From assembly GCF_044324785.1 (NCBI RefSeq), contig NZ_CP172127.1: a stretch of DNA of 64,000 bases. One strand, 5' to 3'. Of the stretch, positions 206 to 13,804 are shown piece after piece (positions within the stretch are counted from its first letter, which is position 1; each line of letters begins with the position of its first letter). This stretch comes from Escherichia coli (GTDB lineage Bacteria; Pseudomonadota; Gammaproteobacteria; Enterobacterales; Enterobacteriaceae). Below the pieces are notes generated by a model. That model did no database searches, was not told where the DNA came from, and saw only the letters and a program-made list of their open reading frames with translations. The position numbers and the translations under genes are program-made.

Positions 206-2701
206 ATGTTAACGATTCAATTTCTCTGTCCTTTGCCTAACGGTATTCATGCTCGTCCGGCGTGGGAACTTAAAGAACAGTGCAGCCAGTGGCAAAGCGA
301 AATCACTTTTATTAACCATCGCCAGAACGCAAAGGCCGATGCGAAAAGTTCGCTGGCGCTGATTGGCACCGGCACTTTATTTAATGACAGTTGCAGCCTG
401 AACATCAGCGGCAGCGATGAAGAACAGGCGCGGCGCGTGCTGGAAGAGTACATCCAGGTGCGCTTTATCGACAGCGACAGCATTCAGCCGACGCAGGCAG
501 AACTGACGGCGCATCCGCTACCGCGTTCATTAAGCCGTCTGAATCCTGATTTACTGTACGGCAATGTGCTGGCAAGCGGTGTCGGCGTGGGTACGCTGAC
601 CCTGTTACAGAGCGACAGCCTCGACAGTTATCGGGCAATCCCGGCCAGTGCGCAAGACTCCACCCGGCTGGAGCACAGCCTGGCAACGCTTGCCGAGCAA
701 CTGAACCAGCAACTGCGCGAGCGTGACGGCGAAAGCAAAACTATCCTCAGCGCCCATTTGTCGCTGATCCAGGATGATGAATTTGCAGGCAATATCCGTC
801 ACCTGATGGCAGAACAGCATCAGGGGCTGGGGGCGGCGATCATCAGCAATATGGAGCAGGTTTGTGCCAAACTTTCTGCTTCTGCCAGCGATTATCTGCG
901 CGAGCGGGTCAGCGACATTCGCGATATCAGCGAACAGTTACTGCATATCACCTGGCCGGAACTAAAACCGCGCAATAATCTGGTGCTTGAAAAACCGACT
1001 ATTCTGGTGGCTGAAGATTTAACCCCAAGCCAGTTTTTGAGCCTCGATTTACAAAATCTTGCGGGCATGATTCTGGAGAAAACCGGGCGCACCTCGCATA
1101 CCCTGATTCTGGCCCGCGCCTCGGCGATCCCGGTTCTTAGCGGCTTGCCGCTGGATGCGATTGCCCGTTATGCCGGGCAACCGGCGGTGCTTGACGCCCA
1201 GTGCGGCGTGCTGGCGATTAACCCGAATGACGCGGTGAGCGGTTATTATCAGGTCGCGCAGACGCTGGCGGATAAACGCCAAAAACAACAGGCGCAGGCC
1301 GCCGCGCAGCTGGCCTATTCCCGTGATAACAAGCGTATTGATATTGCGGCGAATATCGGCACCGCTCTGGAAGCGCCAGGCGCGTTTGCTAACGGCGCGG
1401 AAGGTGTTGGGCTGTTCCGTACCGAAATGCTCTATATGGATCGCGACAGCGCGCCGGACGAGCAGGAGCAATTTGAAGCCTACCAGCAGGTGCTACTGGC
1501 GGCGGGCGACAAGCCGATTATCTTCCGCACGATGGACATCGGCGGCGATAAAAGCATTCCTTATCTGAATATTCCCCAGGAAGAGAACCCGTTCCTCGGC
1601 TATCGCGCGGTACGTATTTACCCGGAATTTGCTGGCCTGTTCCGCACTCAACTGCGGGCCATTTTGCGCGCCGCCAGTTTCGGCAACGCCCAGTTGATGA
1701 TCCCAATGGTTCACAGCCTCGATCAGATCTTATGGGTGAAGGGCGAGATCCAAAAAGCGATCGTTGAGCTTAAGCGCGATGGCCTGCGTCATGCAGAGAT
1801 GATTACGCTGGGTATCATGGTGGAAGTGCCGTCGGTGTGCTACATCATCGACCACTTCTGCGATGAGGTCGATTTCTTCAGTATCGGTTCTAACGATATG
1901 ACCCAGTATCTGTATGCGGTCGATCGTAATAACCCGCGCGTATCGCCGCTGTATAACCCGATTACGCCATCGTTCCTGCGCATGTTGCAGCAAATAGTTA
2001 CCACTGCGCATCAGCGGGGCAAATGGGTAGGCATTTGCGGTGAACTGGGCGGTGAAAGCCGTTATCTGCCGCTACTGCTTGGGCTGGGCCTGGATGAGCT
2101 GAGTATGAGTAGCCCGCGCATTCCGGCGGTGAAAAGCCAGCTTCGTCAACTGGATAGCGAGGCGTGTCGGGAACTGGCACGTCAGGCGTGTGAATGTCGC
2201 AGCGCGCAGGAAATTGAAGCGTTACTCACCGCCTTTACGCCGGAAGAAGACGTTCGCCCGCTGCTGGCGCTGGAGAATATCTTCGTTGATCAGGCCTTTA
2301 GTAATAAAGAGCAGGCGATCCAGTTCCTGTGTGGCAACCTCGGCGTTAACGGGCGCACGGAACATCCGTTTGAGCTGGAAGAGGATGTCTGGCAGCGGGA
2401 AGAGATTGTCACCACCGGCGTTGGTTTTGGCGTGGCGATCCCGCACACCAAATCGCAGTGGATCCGTCATTCCAGTATCAGCATTGCCCGGCTGGCGAAA
2501 CCGGTTGACTGGCAGTCAGAAATGGGCGAAGTCGAACTGGTGATCATGCTGACGCTGGGTGCTAACGAAGGGATGAATCATGTGAAAGTCTTCTCGCAGC
2601 TGGCGCGTAAACTGGTGAATAAAAACTTCCGCCAGTCGTTGTTTGCCGCGCAAGATGCACAAAGTATCCTGACGCTGCTGGAAACAGAATTAACCTTCTG
2701 A
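206..2701 (+). CDS. fryA: PTS multiphosphoryl transfer protein (HPr-EI-EIIA fusion), PtsA paralog
   Basis: 831-aa ORF; recognised as FryA/YpdD from sequence and from position beside ypdCBA. Confidence 0.9.
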   Translation: MLTIQFLCPLPNGIHARPAWELKEQCSQWQSEITFINHRQNAKADAKSSLALIGTGTLFNDSCSLNISGSDEEQARRVLEEYIQVRFIDSDSIQPTQAELTAHPLPRSLSRLNPDLLYGNVLASGVGVGTLTLLQSDSLDSYRAIPASAQDSTRLEHSLATLAEQLNQQLRERDGESKTILSAHLSLIQDDEFAGNIRHLMAEQHQGLGAAIISNMEQVCAKLSASASDYLRERVSDIRDISEQLLHITWPELKPRNNLVLEKPTILVAEDLTPSQFLSLDLQNLAGMILEKTGRTSHTLILARASAIPVLSGLPLDAIARYAGQPAVLDAQCGVLAINPNDAVSGYYQVAQTLADKRQKQQAQAAAQLAYSRDNKRIDIAANIGTALEAPGAFANGAEGVGLFRTEMLYMDRDSAPDEQEQFEAYQQVLLAAGDKPIIFRTMDIGGDKSIPYLNIPQEENPFLGYRAVRIYPEFAGLFRTQLRAILRAASFGNAQLMIPMVHSLDQILWVKGEIQKAIVELKRDGLRHAEMITLGIMVEVPSVCYIIDHFCDEVDFFSIGSNDMTQYLYAVDRNNPRVSPLYNPITPSFLRMLQQIVTTAHQRGKWVGICGELGGESRYLPLLLGLGLDELSMSSPRIPAVKSQLRQLDSEACRELARQACECRSAQEIEALLTAFTPEEDVRPLLALENIFVDQAFSNKEQAIQFLCGNLGVNGRTEHPFELEEDVWQREEIVTTGVGFGVAIPHTKSQWIRHSSISIARLAKPVDWQSEMGEVELVIMLTLGANEGMNHVKVFSQLARKLVNKNFRQSLFAAQDAQSILTLLETELTF

Positions 2702-2703
2702 CG

Positions 2704-3561
2704 TTAGCCCTGAAAACGGGCGCTGTACTCTCCCGGCGTCAGACCAAACTGACGCCGGAAAACGCGACAAAAATAGTCGCTATCCGGAAAACCGCAACGC
2801 TGCGCCACTTCATGAATCGACAGATGATATTTCTGCAAAATCATCCTCGCCTTCGCCATTCGCACCCAACGCACATATTCGATAAAACGCATTGTTCCAT
2901 GCTGCGCAAACAGTTTTGACAGATGATTGGGCGTGATATTAAAAAACAGCGCCACGCTCTCACGGGTGAGCGGCTGGGCATAATTATCCTGAACCCAGTT
3001 ACAAATGCTGTGATAAAGAAAATCGCCGCGCGGCTGCGAATTGCCCGGCGGCATATTCACCACGTTACGGCAAAGATGCAGCAAACTTAACACCAGCGGC
3101 TGAATGATATTCTGCTCCAGCGGCGAACGGCTAAGATGGGTGAGTGCAGTAAGCATTGCTTCACCTTCGCCGCGTTGCAGGCTGGGAAGTTGGATCTGGC
3201 GAGCAGGATGCAACAACGACGTGGTGCGGCTATCGTAAAACGATAACCCAAGCCAGGTCGGTGCGAACACCAGGCTTAACAGCATCACCGGTTTGTTGTT
3301 GATCGGTAAATTAGCCGCGCGCGCTGGAATAAACAGCATTTCTCCTTCAACCATACGTTGCTGCTTTGCTTCCAGCAGATTGCCGTATTCGCCGCGCAGC
3401 ACGATATCCAGACGGGGAAAATCAATACATAAACTGCCCACCGGTAACGAGGCAGGCTGGCTGGCAAACCAGACGCGCCCCAGTAGTTGCGGGTTAAGCA
3501 CCAGGCCGCTGAACAGATCGGCGAAAAATTGTTGATCGGCGGGCAAGCCTGGTGCTTTCAT
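2704..3561 (-). CDS. ypdC: AraC-family transcriptional regulator
   Basis: 285-aa ORF with C-terminal AraC-type HTH region; convergent with fryA as in K-12. Confidence 0.85.
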   Translation of the reverse strand: MKAPGLPADQQFFADLFSGLVLNPQLLGRVWFASQPASLPVGSLCIDFPRLDIVLRGEYGNLLEAKQQRMVEGEMLFIPARAANLPINNKPVMLLSLVFAPTWLGLSFYDSRTTSLLHPARQIQLPSLQRGEGEAMLTALTHLSRSPLEQNIIQPLVLSLLHLCRNVVNMPPGNSQPRGDFLYHSICNWVQDNYAQPLTRESVALFFNITPNHLSKLFAQHGTMRFIEYVRWVRMAKARMILQKYHLSIHEVAQRCGFPDSDYFCRVFRRQFGLTPGEYSARFQG

Positions 3562-3573
3562 GAAAGTTCCCGA

Positions 3574-4326
3574 TTAAAGATGCATTAACTGGCGGAATTC
3601 TTTAACTTTGCTGCGGCTGACCGGCACTTCAAAATCCAGATCTTTCAGCCGCAGAATATAGGTGTTATTAAACCACGGTTCGATCTCGCGGATTTTGTTC
3701 AGATTGACACAAAATGAGCGATGGCAGCGGAAAAAATGCGACGGCGGCAGCTTGCTGCAAAACTCGGTAATGTTCATCGGCATTACGTAGGATTCACGCC
3801 GCGTATAGACAAAGGTCATTTTCTCGTGCGCTTCGGCGTAATAGATATCGTTAATTGGCGTGACAATGATTCGCTCATCTTTCACCAGATTAATGGTGTC
3901 ATTCTCACGCGTTACCGTCGCGGCAGGCGTACTGCTGGTCTGCTGTTGTTGCCAGGCTGCTTCCAGTTTTTGCAGCATCCCGGTAATGCGTGACTCCTGA
4001 TACGGTTTGAGAATGTAGTCAAACGCTTCCAGTTCAAATGCTTCTACCGCATGTTCTTTCCACGCGGTGATGAACACAATAAACGGTTTATGGGCGAACT
4101 GGCTGATGTTTTGCGCCAGCAACACGCCATCCAGCGACGGAATATTGATATCCAGAAAAATGGCGTCGACGCGGTTATGCTGCAAAAACTTCAACACGTC
4201 CAGACCGTCGTCAAAGGTGCCGACAATCTCCATCTGGCTGTGCTCTTTAATTAGCCAGCTCAGTTCCTGTTGTGCCAGGAATTCGTCTTCAACAATGATG
4301 ACTTTCACAATATCACTCCGGCTCAA
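3574..4326 (-). CDS. ypdB: LytTR-family response regulator of the pyruvate-responsive YpdA/YpdB two-component system
   Basis: ORF contains VKVIIVEDE, matching the YpdB N-terminus MKVIIVEDE; true start is probably the GTG at 4308 giving 244 aa, while the ATG at 4326 overlaps the ypdA stop. Confidence 0.88.
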
Positions 4327-8126: not shown

Positions 8127-9047
8127 TTAAATGTATAACGACGATTCACCCACCGGGCGCGTTTTAAAGCGACGGTGGATCCAGAGGTACTGCTCCGGCG
8201 CGCGCATGATCTCTTTCTCGATAATCTTGTTCATATAGGCAGCGGCTTGATTTTCATCTGCCGGGTAGCCTTCCATCTCTGGGGTGATGTACAAACGATA
8301 TCCGCTGTAATCCGCTTTTCTTACCATCGTTACGGTTAACATGGCTGCGCCAGAGAGACGTGAAAGGACATACGTACCATTGGTTGTGGCGACATTTTCC
8401 ACCGCAAAGAACGGCGCGAAGGAGCTGCCTTTACGACCATAATCCTGATCGGGAGCAAACCATACCGCTTCACCTTTCTTCAGTGCACCGACAATGCCGC
8501 GTAGATTATTTCTGCCGATCATCGCTTTGTTAGAGCGCATGCGCCCACGGGTCTGCACCCATTCCATCAGCTGATTATTATGTGGACGATAGGTAGCCAT
8601 CATTGGTTGACAAAGTCCCATCACGCGGCCGCCCAGTTCCAGCGACATAAAATGGACGCCGACAACCATTACGCCGCGATTTTGCATTTGTGCGCGTTTA
8701 AGGTTATCCAGTCCTTCAACATCAAACCATTTGCGTACGCGACTGTCGGGCCAGAACCACGCCATGCCGGTTTCTACCAGCGCCATGCCGAGTGAACGAA
8801 AGTTTTCGGCAATCATCTTCTCGCGTTCTTCCGCAGAATGCTGCGGGAAGCAAAGTTCCAGGTTTTTACGGGCGATAGATTCACGCCGTTTCAGGAATGG
8901 TCGCGCCATTGCGCCAATACGCGTGCCGAGAAAGCAGAGAACAGGATAAGGAAGCTGTACCCAAAGCCAGAGTACACCAAGCCCAAACCATGTGAGCCAG
9001 TAGCGAGGATGTAGAAACTCGCGGGAAAATTTGCATTGTGGAAACAT
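8127..9047 (-). CDS. lpxP: lipid A palmitoleoyltransferase (cold-induced)
   Basis: ORF 8127-9113 contains the LpxP sequence; N-terminus MFPQCKFSREFLHPRYW places the start at 9047 (306 aa). Confidence 0.9.
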   Translation of the reverse strand: MFPQCKFSREFLHPRYWLTWFGLGVLWLWVQLPYPVLCFLGTRIGAMARPFLKRRESIARKNLELCFPQHSAEEREKMIAENFRSLGMALVETGMAWFWPDSRVRKWFDVEGLDNLKRAQMQNRGVMVVGVHFMSLELGGRVMGLCQPMMATYRPHNNQLMEWVQTRGRMRSNKAMIGRNNLRGIVGALKKGEAVWFAPDQDYGRKGSSFAPFFAVENVATTNGTYVLSRLSGAAMLTVTMVRKADYSGYRLYITPEMEGYPADENQAAAYMNKIIEKEIMRAPEQYLWIHRRFKTRPVGESSLYI

Positions 9048-9399
9048 AGTTACCTTCTGTAGATACGAATTGTTGTATCGCAGAAGATTCCATGTCGACA
9101 GCGGTACACTCAATTGGTTGGGCCATCATGTACGACAATGGTTCCTGTAAAGAGTGTAAAGACTAGTCAGGACATAACCACGAGGAGCATGAATGCGGTG
9201 GCTCTACTTTATCACTGGCTGACTGCTTTCAGCTACTGATTATTAATCGTGCAAAGTAAATATTTTTCCGCACGCAATAGCGTTGCATTTAACGTGCTGT
9301 TTTCATTGATGCTTAGCAAAAATTGCCAGAGGTTAAGGATTGTCTTACTATTAAAGTGACTGAAGTTACAGGTTTTTTAGCGCGGCAGGAGGTTGAGCT

Positions 9400-9642
9400 A
9401 TGATTTATTTATGGATGTTTCTCGCCCTGTGTATTGTCTGCGTAAGCGGCTACATTGGTCAGGTCCTGAACGTGGTATCGGCGGTCTCTTCTTTCTTCGG
9501 CATGGTGATCCTCGCTGCACTCATTTATTACTTCACCATGTGGTTAACTGGCGGTAATGAACTGGTGACGGGGATATTTATGTTTCTTGCCCCGGCTTGT
9601 GGCTTGATGATTCGCTTTATGGTGGGGTATGGCAGGCGCTAG
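9400..9642 (+). CDS. yfdY: small inner membrane protein YfdY
   Basis: 80-aa hydrophobic ORF in the expected position between lpxP and ypdI. Confidence 0.75.
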   Translation: MIYLWMFLALCIVCVSGYIGQVLNVVSAVSSFFGMVILAALIYYFTMWLTGGNELVTGIFMFLAPACGLMIRFMVGYGRR

Positions 9643-9718
9643 TGGGTCAGGATGGTTCATTTGGGCAGGTGTTCACATCAGCATCAGGCATGATTGTTCA
9701 CCTGCCATGTGACAGACG

Positions 9719-9994
9719 CTATCGCACAGGATGGATAAGATAATTCGCCTTTGTCGGAAAAGGGGGCGGAATTTCTTCTGTGAGGTTTAATGGTGGCGCA
9801 TCTTCTCTCAACTTAAACAAAATCGCCTGTGATGGCTGAAGTTTTGTAGAATGAGTTGTCGTCATCACTGACGTTTTTTCTGTCTCTTTATAGCTCGTCT
9901 CACTTCCACCACCAGAAATAGAAAATGCAAAAACATTGCATGCCATAATAGAGACCAATAAAAATAAGCTAAAAAGCATTAAGTTTACTTTCAT
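9719..9994 (-). CDS. ypdI: lipoprotein YpdI
   Basis: 91-aa ORF with signal peptide and lipobox-like motif (LLVSIMAC); position matches ypdI. Confidence 0.75.
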   Translation of the reverse strand: MKVNLMLFSLFLLVSIMACNVFAFSISGGGSETSYKETEKTSVMTTTHSTKLQPSQAILFKLREDAPPLNLTEEIPPPFPTKANYLIHPVR

Positions 9995-10135
9995 AGAAAG
10001 TTATCCTGAAAATGGTTCACTGAAAACCTACGACGTTATGGCTGTATTTACATATAATTAATCAGTATTTACATCGATATAATAAATGACATCTCTTTTT
10101 GGTATATAAGAATAGTTCTCTGTGACAGGAAGCAT

Positions 10136-10153
10136 ATTCCTACAATTGTAAGA
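10136..10153. promoter_or_regulatory. putative EvgA box upstream of yfdX
   Basis: TTCCTACA-AT-TGTAAGAC matches the 18-bp EvgA inverted-repeat consensus TTCPyTACA-N2-TGTAPuGAA as I recall it; about 135 bp upstream of the yfdX start. Confidence 0.6.
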
Positions 10154-10289
10154 CTAAAATACTTCTTGCGATAATAACTACAGCTGTAAGATAACCCTTT
10201 CAAAATGACCGTTGCTCTCTGATTTCTCATTTCATGCTCACCCAATATGATGGCGGCGTTTTCTAAAACTGTTAAAGAATGAGGTAAGT

Positions 10290-10922
10290 ATGAAACGTTT
10301 AATTATGGCTACGATGGTCACAGCAATTCTGGCATCTTCAACTGTATGGGCGGCTGATAATGCACCGGTAGCGGCACAACAGCAAACTCAGCAAGTTCAG
10401 CAAACCCAGAAAACGGCAGCAGCAGAGCGTATCTCTGAACAAGGTTTATATGCGATGCGTGACGTGCAGGTAGCGCGCCTGGCTCTGTTTCATGGCGATC
10501 CGGAAAAGGCAAAAGAACTGACCAATGAAGCTTCAGCTTTGTTGTCAGATGACAGTACCGAATGGGCAAAGTTCGCTAAGCCAGGTAAAAAGACCAATCT
10601 CAATGATGACCAATATATTGTCATTAATGCATCTGTCGGAATTTCTGAGAGTTATGTAGCGACACCCGAAAAAGAAGCCGCGATAAAAATTGCCAACGAA
10701 AAAATGGCGAAAGGGGATAAAAAGGGCGCAATGGAAGAGCTTCGCCTGGCCGGTGTTGGCGTAATGGAAAACCAATATCTGATGCCGCTTAAACAGACTC
10801 GTAATGCACTTGCTGATGCGCAGAAACTGCTTGATAAAAAGCAATACTACGAGGCAAACCTGGCGCTTAAAGGTGCTGAAGATGGAATCATCGTCGATAG
10901 CGAAGCACTGTTTGTGAACTAA
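10290..10922 (+). CDS. yfdX: periplasmic protein YfdX (EvgA-regulated)
   Basis: 210-aa ORF with N-terminal signal peptide; position and sequence consistent with YfdX. Confidence 0.88.
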
Positions 10923-11165
10923 AGCTGACAGGCAATATATTGAGGTAAAGGATTTAACTCCCTCCAGCCGACAATTTTTTATGACCACAATACGACAGGT
11001 TGTGGTCATAAAATTATTTGGCGCTCGCGGTTCTATAAACTCGCATTTTATCTTCCTCAAAGTAACCCGCAATAATTCCGTGTCATCACAAATCATTTAT
11101 TATGTTATGCTTTATGGTACGCTTTAAAAAGCGTAATCATACCCTTACTTGTAAATCACCGGCGC

Positions 11166-11183
11166 TTCTTACAGTTGTAAGAA
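11166..11183. promoter_or_regulatory. putative EvgA box of the frc-oxc-yfdV-yfdE promoter
   Basis: TTCTTACA-GT-TGTAAGAA is a perfect match to the EvgA inverted-repeat consensus; about 250 bp upstream of the frc start codon at 11435. Confidence 0.65.
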
Positions 11184-11446
11184 TAACATCACAAATGTCG
11201 CGGCTCTCTCTGATTACCGCGAACCAATATTTATCATATTCTTCTTTTCGTCCTCACTACTTACCATGCAGAAAGGAATTGGAAGTGGCGATGAAATGAT
11301 TATCAGCACTTGATACAGGAATTTAAAAATATCGAGTGCAGCTACGACGATATTTTGCGGATTATTTATAGAGAGCGTTATGCCTTAAATAAACGCTAAA
11401 TTAACATATATTTAATTAACTAATAGGTATTGCTATGTCAACTCCA

Positions 11447-11455
11447 CTTCAAGGA
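11447..11455. repeat. 9-bp target site duplication (left copy) of the IS903 insertion
   Basis: CTTCAAGGA immediately left of the IS, identical to 12513-12521. Confidence 0.9.
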
Positions 11456-11473
11456 GGCTTTGTTGAATAAATC
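11456..11473. repeat. IS903 terminal inverted repeat (transposase-distal end)
   Basis: GGCTTTGTTGAATAAATC, perfect reverse complement of 12495-12512. Confidence 0.9.
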
Positions 11474-11511
11474 AGATTTCGGGTAAGTCTCCCCCGTAGC
11501 GGGTTGTGTTT

Positions 11512-12435
11512 TCAGGCAATACGCACGCTTTCAGGCATACCTGCTTTCGTCATTTTGTTCAGCGCTCGTACCAGGGCCATAGCCTCCGCAACCTGACCAT
11601 CGTAGTCACGCAGCGTCAGTGAACCCCCGAACAGCTGTTTTACCCGGTACATCGCCGTTTCCGCTATCGAGCGACGGTTGTAATCTGTTGTCCATTTCCA
11701 CCGCGCATTACTCCCGGTCATTCGCTGATTAGCCACTGCACGGTTACGGTCTGCATATTCACCGGGCCAGTAACCCGCACCTTTTCGGGGAGGGATAAGC
11801 GCGCTGATTTTCTTACGCCGCAGTTCATCGTGACATAGCCGGGTATCGTAAGCGCCATCGGCGGCGGCTGACCTGATTTTCCGGTGGGTTTGCCGGATTA
11901 ACCCGGGGAAGGCCTCTGAGTCCGTAACGTTGTTCAGCGACAGGTCAGCGCAGATGATTTCATGTGTTTTACTGTCAACGGCGAGATGCAGCTTACGCCA
12001 GATACGGCGGCGTTCCTGGCCATGCTTTTTGACTTTCCACTCGCCTTCACCGAAGACCTTCAGCCCGGTGGAATCAATTACCAGGTGTGCGATTTCACCC
12101 CGGGTGGGCGTTTTGAAACTGACATTAACCGACTTTGCCCGCCTGCTGACACAGCTGTAATCCGGGCAGCGTAGCGGAACGTTCATCAGAGAAAAAATGG
12201 AATCAATAAAGCCCTGCGCAGCCCGCAGGGTCAGCCTGAATACGCGTTTAATGACCAGCACAGTAGTGATGGCAAGGTCAGAATAGCGCTGAGGTCTGCC
12301 TCGTGAAGAAGGTGTTGCTGACTCATACCAGGCCTGAATAGCTTCATCATCCAGCCAGAAAGTTATGGAGCCACGGTTGATGAGGGCTTTATTGTAGGTG
12401 GGCCAGTTGGTGATTTTGAACTTTTGCTTTGCCAC
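11512..12435 (-). CDS. IS903 transposase (DDE, IS5 family)
   Basis: Translation ...AKQKFKITNWPTYNKALINRGSITFWLDDEAIQAWYE...MPESVRIA matches the IS903 transposase; likely GTG start at 12435 gives 307 aa, whereas the track ORF begins at an upstream in-frame ATG at 12480. Confidence 0.9.
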   Translation of the reverse strand: MAKQKFKITNWPTYNKALINRGSITFWLDDEAIQAWYESATPSSRGRPQRYSDLAITTVLVIKRVFRLTLRAAQGFIDSIFSLMNVPLRCPDYSCVSRRAKSVNVSFKTPTRGEIAHLVIDSTGLKVFGEGEWKVKKHGQERRRIWRKLHLAVDSKTHEIICADLSLNNVTDSEAFPGLIRQTHRKIRSAAADGAYDTRLCHDELRRKKISALIPPRKGAGYWPGEYADRNRAVANQRMTGSNARWKWTTDYNRRSIAETAMYRVKQLFGGSLTLRDYDGQVAEAMALVRALNKMTKAGMPESVRIA

Positions 12436-12494
12436 GGAACGGTCTGCGTTGTCGGGAAGATACGTGATCTGATCCTTCAACTCAGCAAAAGTTC

Positions 12495-12512
12495 GATTTA
12501 TTCAACAAAGCC
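12495..12512. repeat. IS903 terminal inverted repeat (transposase-proximal end)
   Basis: GATTTATTCAACAAAGCC, reverse complement of 11456-11473. Confidence 0.9.
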
Positions 12513-12521
12513 CTTCAAGGA
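12513..12521. repeat. 9-bp target site duplication (right copy) of the IS903 insertion
   Basis: CTTCAAGGA identical to 11447-11455; a 9-bp duplication is what I recall for IS903. Confidence 0.9.
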
Positions 12522-13804
12522 ATTAAAGTTCTCGATTTCACCGGTGTGCAATCTGGCCCATCTTGTACTCAGATGCTGGCCTGGTTTGGCGCTGACGTCA
12601 TTAAAATTGAACGTCCCGGCGTTGGTGACGTAACGCGTCACCAGCTGCGAGATATTCCTGATATCGATGCGCTTTACTTCACCATGCTTAACAGTAACAA
12701 ACGTTCTATTGAATTAAATACCAAAACAGCGGAAGGCAAAGAGGTAATGGAAAAGCTGATCCGCGAAGCTGATATCTTAGTCGAGAACTTTCATCCAGGG
12801 GCCATTGATCACATGGGCTTCACCTGGGAGCATATTCAAGAAATCAATCCACGTCTGATTTTTGGTTCGATCAAAGGGTTTGATGAGTGTTCGCCTTATG
12901 TGAATGTAAAAGCCTATGAAAACGTTGCTCAGGCAGCGGGTGGTGCGGCATCCACTACAGGTTTTTGGGACGGCCCGCCGCTGGTAAGCGCTGCAGCGTT
13001 GGGTGACAGCAACACCGGAATGCATTTGCTGATCGGTTTACTTGCTGCTTTGCTGCATCGCGAAAAAACGGGGCGTGGGCAACGAGTTACCATGTCAATG
13101 CAGGATGCCGTGTTGAACCTTTGCCGCGTGAAATTACGCGACCAGCAGCGTCTCGATAAGTTGGGGTATCTGGAAGAATACCCGCAGTATCCGAATGGCA
13201 CATTTGGTGATGCAGTTCCCCGCGGTGGTAATGCGGGTGGTGGCGGTCAGCCTGGCTGGATCCTGAAATGTAAAGGCTGGGAAACCGATCCTAATGCCTA
13301 TATTTATTTCACTATTCAGGAGCAAAACTGGGAAAACACCTGTAAAGCTATCGGCAAACCAGAATGGATTACCGATCCGGCATATAGTACAGCTCATGCC
13401 CGACAGCCACATATTTTCGATATTTTTGCTGAAATCGAAAAATACACTGTCACTATTGATAAACATGAAGCGGTGGCCTATTTGACTCAGTTTGATATTC
13501 CTTGTGCACCGGTTTTAAGTATGAAAGAAATTTCACTTGATCCCTCTTTGCGCCAAAGTGGCAGTGTTGTCGAAGTGGAACAACCGTTGCGTGGAAAATA
13601 TCTGACAGTTGGTTGTCCAATGAAATTCTCTGCCTTTACGCCGGATATTAAAGCTGCGCCGCTATTAGGTGAACATACCGCTGCTGTATTGCAGGAGTTG
13701 GGTTATAGCGACGATGAAATTGCTGCAATGAAGCAAAACCACGCCATCTGATATTAACGGGGGCTTCTGGCTCCCAATTTATAAAAATTTCGAGGTTATT
13801 AATC

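Follow-up and report, generated by a model that had tools for sequence, protein, structure and literature searches.

Known 3'-end and regulatory palindromes compared with the yfdX hairpin

Intrinsic terminators in Enterobacteria are recognized by a stem-loop located past the gene on the transcribed strand, an adjacent U-rich tract, and a stem that is rich in G+C, above all at the base next to the U-tract. REP/BIME elements, whose consensus is G/C-rich, are palindromes of intergenic 3' regions that could stabilize the upstream mRNA. A third kind of structure, the protective 3'-terminal stem-loop of Rho-dependent or processed transcripts, is presented in Dar & Sorek 2018 (PMC6061677) as a stable, conserved hairpin of the 3' UTR for which a U-tract is not needed. 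The yfdX region itself is also known for regulatory palindromes: according to the YfdE paper (PMC3720670, citing Masuda & Church 2003), EvgA binds inverted repeats located upstream of yfdX as well as of yfdWUVE and induces these genes, a cluster that is named the yfdXWUVE operon in that paper. The EvgA box is an 18-bp inverted repeat, TTCYTACA-N2-TGTARGAA.

The window (the whole stretch of Escherichia coli DNA that was analyzed, 64 kb in length) carries the lpxP-yfdY-ypdI-yfdX-frc-oxc region in reverse orientation relative to K-12. A palindrome capable of forming a hairpin lies in the spacer between yfdX and frc, and K-12 MG1655 has an identical hairpin. The features of the region, in order of position, are as follows:

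10137-10154: EvgA-type box TTCCTACAATTGTAAGAC upstream of yfdX, similar in sequence to the frc box
10290..10922, + strand: yfdX, RefSeq-annotated, 210 aa, YfdX family (PF10938), 99% identical to E. coli YfdX
10977..10990, + strand: 5' arm TTTTATGACCACAA, with 100% complementarity to the 3' arm and including four of the T6
10991..10999, + strand: loop TACGACAGG, the variable part of the hairpin, in which U10991·G10999 can close as a 15th pair
11000..11013, + strand: 3' arm TTGTGGTCATAAAA, 14 nt, from the repeat finder
11014..11021, + strand: U-rich tail TTATTTGG, directly 3' of the extended stem, 5 T in 8
11166..11183, + strand: EvgA-box palindrome of frc (yfdW), TTCTTACA-GT-TGTAAGAA, a perfect inverted repeat in the yfdX-frc spacer

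Like the intrinsic terminators of Enterobacteria, the yfdX hairpin is a coding-strand stem-loop positioned tens of nucleotides past the stop codon, with an adjacent U-rich UUAUUUGG and a strand-specific signal. It departs from the typical case in that its stem is long (14-15 bp) and A/U-rich at the base, with 4-5 G-C pairs and a loop of 7-9 nt, and in that its U-tract is short, interrupted, and not conserved in Yersinia-type relatives or in the metagenomic relative L083. As a palindrome of ∼37 nt in an intergenic 3' region that could stabilize the upstream mRNA, it resembles REP/BIME elements; unlike these, it is single-copy and A/T-rich, and it bears no similarity to the REP consensus. The protective stem-loops of PMC6061677 share with it a stable, conserved 3' UTR position and an independence from the U-tract that fits the relatives retaining only a hairpin, but a U-rich tail is present in E. 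coli. Finally, the palindrome occupies the same spacer as an EvgA box yet differs from it in sequence, arm length, and spacing; the true boxes are those at 11166-11183 and 10137-10154.

A perfect 14-bp inverted repeat downstream of yfdX

In the window sequence, ATGACCACAA (10981-10990) and TTGTGGTCAT (11000-11009) flank the 9-nt spacer TACGACAGG, and the gap between the end of the yfdX stop codon (10922) and the 10-bp arm is 58 nt. This is exactly the element described in the initial annotation, a 10-bp inverted repeat with an N9 spacer 58 bp past the yfdX stop, and the coordinates agree in full. The T6 and A4 runs that had been described before and after the repeat are likewise present (10975-10980 and 11010-11013), though four of the T's pair with A4. 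Because these four T's are complementary to A4, the full perfect inverted repeat is 14 bp rather than 10 and spans 10977-10990 and 11000-11013 with a 9-nt loop. If the closing wobble U10991·G10999 is counted, the stem has 15 pairs and the loop 7 nt.

Among perfect inverted repeats with a loop of 3-12 nt, this one is the longest in the 64-kb window. Arms of at least 14 bp appeared in 0 of 300 dinucleotide-preserving shuffles of the window, where the longest arm averaged 9.6 bp and reached a maximum of 13. The palindrome is therefore genuine, and its length well exceeds what chance would give. Folded as RNA, its 71-nt context gives -25.5 kcal/mol on the + strand (z = -4.4) and -25.0 kcal/mol on the - strand (z = -3.8). 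The hairpin alone, on the + strand, has a folding energy of -18.0 kcal/mol over 14-15 bp and starts 54 nt after the yfdX stop. Four of its 14 pairs are G-C (five in a variant allele), and the six basal pairs are all A-U (UUUUAU/AUAAAA).

RefSeq has no annotation under the hairpin, and an Rfam 15 scan of window positions 9000-13000 on both strands, at E-values up to 1, gave no match. A 48-codon open reading frame that begins at an ATG within the 5' arm (10981) was considered and rejected, as it has no Shine-Dalgarno sequence and the Yersinia frame stops after 4 codons.

Polarity and terminator scoring

The initial annotation had held that the flanking tracts are the opposite of what a terminator needs on either strand. 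The reversal of polarity is only apparent, because the T and A runs pair together and the U-rich tail then follows: T4 and A4 are stem, TTATTTGG comes next, and the + strand has a borderline positive score (d = +1.4), so the earlier argument is mistaken. More generally, a T-run before and an A-run after a palindrome represent additional stem, not a reversed terminator. The tail UUAUUUGG has 5 U among its first 8 positions and scores 3.93, but it is interrupted and only marginally long.

A consensus scan reported a terminator-like site on the + (yfdX) strand, whose stem of 15 pairs includes 4 G-C and encloses a 7-nt loop; the scan of the - strand reported no site at the hairpin. Scoring employed a discriminant of the d'Aubenton-Carafa type with a threshold of d > 0, in which ViennaRNA energies replaced the original parameters. 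The values obtained were as follows:

E. coli common allele, + strand: hairpin -18.0 kcal/mol, tail score 3.93, d = +1.4
E. coli G-C allele, + strand: hairpin -20.1 kcal/mol, tail score 3.93, d = +6.9
E. coli common allele, - strand: hairpin -15.7 kcal/mol, tail score 2.16, d = -37

The low tail score of the - strand belongs to AAUUGUCGG. A bidirectional terminator, which requires an A-tract 5' and a U-tract 3' of the stem for both strands to read as a hairpin with a U-tract, was rejected on the basis of this d value, the lack of a - strand site in the scan, and the lack of a convergent gene.

Of the characteristics by which intrinsic terminators are recognized, a stem-loop past the gene on the transcribed strand and an adjacent U-rich tract are found here; a G+C-rich stem, above all at the base by the U-tract, is not. 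The A/U-rich base of the stem and its low number of G-C pairs (4-5) make the discriminant borderline. Read on the + strand, then, this long-stemmed element with its A/U-rich base is an intrinsic terminator of borderline quality; on the - strand it is not terminator-like. The suggestion of a "degenerate terminator" in the initial annotation came near this conclusion, but its placement of the hairpin in the frc promoter region is contradicted by the position of the true EvgA palindrome at 11166-11183. As this box lies 153 bp downstream of the hairpin, the hairpin is upstream of the frc promoter region and not inside it.

Alleles of the hairpin within E. coli

A 71-nt query centered on the hairpin matched 5,404 of 5,426 complete E. 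coli genomes, always at the yfdX locus and at a median of one place per genome (5,406 places in the 5,404 records). Because the hairpin is single-copy per genome, its membership in a dispersed repeat family such as REP was rejected. Of the 5,404 records, 4,671 carry an identical 41-nt element, and proteins 91-95% identical to YfdX proved to be ordinary E. coli with identical hairpins. Separately, YfdX varies in length within E. coli from 192 to 222 aa at 91-99% identity (protein matches P0001-P0025); our guess is that this polymorphism resides in a glutamine-rich stretch near residues 29-40.

Most genomes have A-U at pair 10984:11006, and strains VCSW7 and GPEC1042 (loci L095 and L097) have G-C. 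The 71-mer carrying both changes matched exactly in 257 records, so at least 257 E. coli genomes have the G-C form. Searches with the two 71-mers that carry a change on only one side of this pair, in the reference background, gave no full-length exact match; the top matches were 98.6% identical, and the one record at ≥99% in each search is presumably a partial alignment. A further variant, G10999A, converts the loop-closing U·G into U-A and occurs in ∼400 E. coli records, as estimated from 3 of 40 evenly spaced ranked matches. Strain N3 (d = -0.2) combines the G-C allele with C10985T, which gives a U·G wobble, and its T-run is one T shorter at a position outside the stem. The U-rich tail was unchanged in every E. 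coli sequence examined.

Conservation of the hairpin outside E. coli

A YfdX alignment used to scan one genome per species yielded 80 loci, in which a single Escherichia record was included. The loci most informative for the hairpin are listed here:

L003, divergent E. coli record: arms identical, two loop changes, loop TACGATAGA; rest of the spacer 81% identical to the window
L004, Yersinia vastinensis: YfdX 86% identical, fourfold-degenerate sites 49% identical; arms identical at 28/28 positions, rest of the spacer 52% identical
L084/L085, contigs resembling Yersinia: A10984G as the sole change, which leaves a G·U pair on the + strand; tail CTCTCTGCAG
L083, metagenomic relative: 68% identical, hdeA-hdeD-yfdX-frc context; hairpin GGCCACAACC-N7-GGTTGTGGCC, without the TTTT/AAAA extension and without a U-tract

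In the alignment of E. coli with Yersinia, only one 37-nt block of the spacer, the one containing the EvgA box and promoter, is more conserved than the hairpin. The loop differs in Y. vastinensis (TATGATTGT), and the hairpin is followed there by CTCTCTGTAG, such that the Yersinia allele has the same stem with a CUCUCUGU tail. Yersinia lacks a U-tract, its scored tail being CUCUCUGUAG with d about -29. The hairpin of L083 has the same core, the G-C form of the covarying pair, and two extra pairs on the loop side; its loop differs, and its tail is AUGUCCUGUC, with d about -9. A search for closer relatives of P0031, the L083 protein, found none, and locus L086 was not used because its contig is chimeric or truncated.

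The best-conserved spacer block between E. coli and Yersinia-type loci is the frc box together with ∼50 nt after it (TAAGAATAACATCACAAAT.TCGCG..TCTCTCTGATTAC). EvgA-type boxes were also located at ∼3862-3879 of L004 and ∼3364-3381 of L084, and this sharing suggests that the same regulation may travel with the yfdX-frc gene module. A second small palindrome, TACGCTTT-AA-AAAGCGTA, lies at window positions 11118-11135, and the frc EvgA box follows ∼30 nt downstream of it. The L003 counterpart of this palindrome reads TACATTAT..AATGTGTG, with one two-sided change (G-C to A-U), two wobbles, and two mismatches, and the palindrome is not conserved in Yersinia.

The genomic surroundings of yfdX vary among these relatives. 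A yfdX-frc-oxc module with 84-86% protein identity sits next to hypF in Y. vastinensis and Y. alsatica, and yfdX has hdeA and hdeD as neighbors in L083 and in Klebsiella. With upstream neighbors that vary, the yfdX-frc-oxc genes resemble an acid-resistance module that moves horizontally. One apparent case of a distant host, the 241-bp scaffold L048 labeled Limosilactobacillus vaginalis DSM 5837, codes for the last 54 residues of YfdX, which match E. coli at 100% identity, and is almost certainly E. coli contamination of the Lactobacillus assembly.

In the window strain, frc is disrupted after codon 7 (MSTPLQG) by a 1,057-bp IS903-type element at 11456-12512. The element has terminal inverted repeats GGCTTTGTTGAATAAATC, a 322-aa transposase open reading frame on the - strand (11512-12480), and a 9-bp target duplication, CTTCAAGGA, at 11447-11455 and 12513-12521. 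Both K-12 and the closest complete genome have an intact frc, and the IS903-frc junction is absent from complete RefSeq E. coli genomes.

Pairing, covariation, and readings other than an RNA hairpin

All stem changes observed keep pairing in the + strand RNA, and the one-sided changes would be mismatches on the - strand. Across nine distinct sequences, 94.8% of pairing cells are compatible with pairing on the + strand, compared with 35-50% after a shift of the 3' partners by 1-3 columns. In the same nine sequences, alignment pair 21:45 is AU in five, GC in three, and GU in one, and pair 22:44 is CG in eight and UG in one. The covariation consists of one pair, changed at least twice independently, together with two wobbles that fit the sense strand only. 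As evidence for pairing in the RNA it is suggestive but falls short of being decisive. Template-switch (quasipalindrome) mutation can also yield symmetric double changes in palindromes without selection on RNA.

This mutational route is one basis for supposing that the palindrome has no function and is kept perfect by template-switch correction or by hitchhiking, with its sole consequence being that it serves as a preferred insertion target for transposable elements. In E. coli 730V1 (O19:H7, NZ_CP061764.1, L096 ∼2500-3620), an IS903B has entered the hairpin loop exactly, with all 9 bp of the loop (TACGACAGG, window 10991-10999) duplicated as its target. IS903 reportedly prefers palindromic targets, and the palindrome may be a favored one; the same strain carries an IS5 ∼33 nt past the yfdX stop. 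A single insertion in ∼5,400 genomes does not, however, indicate function. Identity at 28/28 arm positions against 52% in the spacer would be hard to explain across the E. coli-Yersinia divergence without selection, and the position of the palindrome matches that of hairpins in all homologous loci examined. We regard a functionless palindrome as the least credible of the readings considered, with only a slim chance of being correct.

The same arm conservation could be read as that of a double-stranded DNA operator, with a dimeric regulator contacting two 14-bp half-sites across an uncontacted 9-bp spacer and affecting transcription of frc or yfdX. In keeping with this, it is the arm sequence itself that is conserved (28/28 between E. 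coli and Yersinia, against ∼50% neutral identity) around a variable spacer, and the yfdX-frc spacer is a regulatory hub with EvgA boxes. An operator does not readily account for the symmetric change of the same base pair in E. coli and L083, for one-sided variants whose sense-strand pairs are G·U or U·G, or for a loop that varies while pairing is kept. The location is also awkward, as the site follows the yfdX coding sequence and precedes the frc EvgA box by >150 bp, and unrelated structures occupy the same position elsewhere (a palindrome in L092 and hairpins in other genera). The half-site is not significantly enriched in the window, with 11 matches at ≤1 mismatch, both arms included, against 4.4 ± 2.2 expected, and we know of no E. 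coli regulator motif that matches it. The protein-binding palindrome proposed in the initial annotation is accordingly disfavored, given the varying loop with pairing kept, the compensatory and wobble changes, the unrelated L092 hairpin, and an EvgA palindrome that lies elsewhere, and we consider an operator unlikely.

The strict identity of the arms at the E. coli-Yersinia divergence, where neutral sites are near saturation, is the only aspect of the hairpin that is mildly unusual. Because 28/28 arm identity stands against ∼50% neutral identity and only one pair covaries, the arms might be constrained in sequence beyond pairing, as an element of specific recognition that accompanies yfdX-frc-oxc, the mobile acid and oxalate module. 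Such an element could, for example, be bound, as RNA or DNA, by a dedicated regulator or an RNA-binding protein and thereby adjust yfdX expression relative to that of frc-oxc, which would give the hairpin a role beyond that of a generic terminator. We consider this extension doubtful.

Hairpins at the same position in other yfdX loci

A stable hairpin (-13 kcal/mol or stronger) was found 4-90 nt after the stop codon in 33 of the 33 yfdX-homologue loci examined, in a scan that had no shuffled control. The sequences of these hairpins are unrelated to one another. In L092 (66% identical), the yfdX-frc spacer is only 125 nt long, and the hairpin found at the equivalent position, GCCATATGC-N7-GCATATGGC, is a different one. 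Canonical terminators with T-runs follow the yfdX homologues of Edwardsiella, Orbus, and a Pseudomonadaceae MAG, and G/C-rich hairpins shared with a convergent gene were found in Citrobacter, Klebsiella, and Buttiauxella; the hairpin also differs in the Klebsiella-type loci P0081 and P0101. That unrelated hairpins substitute for one another at the same position is an argument that transcript structure matters, rather than a particular DNA sequence.

Possible termination or protection of the yfdX transcript

Taken as an RNA element, the palindrome is best explained as the 3'-end hairpin of the yfdX mRNA, which in E. coli is a borderline, probably leaky intrinsic terminator situated before the EvgA-dependent promoter of frc itself; we judge this explanation to be probable, with appreciable room for doubt. 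According to the proposed mechanism, transcription of yfdX from its EvgA-activated promoter would produce the 14-15 bp hairpin (∼-18 kcal/mol) 54 nt after the stop. The U-rich tail UUAUUUGG directly after the stem would then bring about weak-to-moderate, probably leaky intrinsic termination in E. coli, and most yfdX transcripts are predicted to end near 11019-11021 (MG1655 ∼2493671-2493675, - strand). In this manner yfdX would be separated from frc-oxc-yfdVE, a unit served by a separate EvgA box 153 bp downstream, and the hairpin left at the 3' end may protect the yfdX message from 3' exonucleases. We infer termination at the hairpin, its efficiency, and stabilization of the mRNA from the features described above.

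Published data were surveyed for a corresponding transcript end. No yfdX 3' end was found in the published Term-seq supplements examined, which cover conditions of poor yfdX expression and whose tables are possibly incomplete; the supplements of Adams 2021 contain only an internal TSS in yfdX, and those of TRS and TERMITe make no mention of the gene. A full-text literature search for the hairpin sequence retrieved no papers, and a search for yfdX with Hfq or sRNA retrieved only an unrelated SELEX table.

As the U-tract is absent where the hairpin is kept (Yersinia and L083), the conserved function may not be intrinsic termination. The hairpin could instead act only as a stabilizer and processing barrier, at the mRNA 3' end or between cistrons, with transcription reading through into frc or stopping at a Rho-dependent site further downstream. 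Exonucleases would trim such transcripts back to the hairpin, leaving a stable 3' end and raising yfdX expression relative to the downstream genes. Trimming of Rho-dependent transcripts to a stem-loop is known behavior, as reported in PMC6061677. Retention of the hairpin without a usable U-tract in Yersinia-type loci and L083 agrees with this possibility, as does the different hairpin in the 125-nt spacer of L092, where cotranscription is likely. The operon name yfdXWUVE in the literature (PMC3720670) implies at least some read-through past the hairpin.

The sequence support for a Rho loading region is mixed: the 152 nt past the hairpin have a bias of C over G in E. coli (36 C, 22 G) and in Yersinia (30 C, 19 G) that would be compatible with one, whereas L083 lacks this bias (43 C, 47 G). 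Against a role limited to stabilization, a U-rich tail does follow the stem in E. coli and is invariant in all E. coli sequences examined. The absence of the U-tract in hairpin-bearing relatives and the operon yfdXWUVE of the literature are the reasons why we keep protection and processing under consideration, as a less likely explanation that nevertheless deserves some weight.

Implications for the yfdX-frc locus

The yfdX hairpin is probably an ordinary, unannotated 3'-end hairpin and leaky terminator. Its significance is local, and no new principle is involved. If this assignment is true, the E. coli map would gain an unannotated 3'-end signal. If the hairpin terminates or stabilizes the yfdX transcript, yfdX and frc-oxc-yfdVE would be two EvgA-driven units, rather than one obligatory yfdXWUVE operon, and such a division would affect the reading of expression data for these oxalate-dependent acid-tolerance genes.
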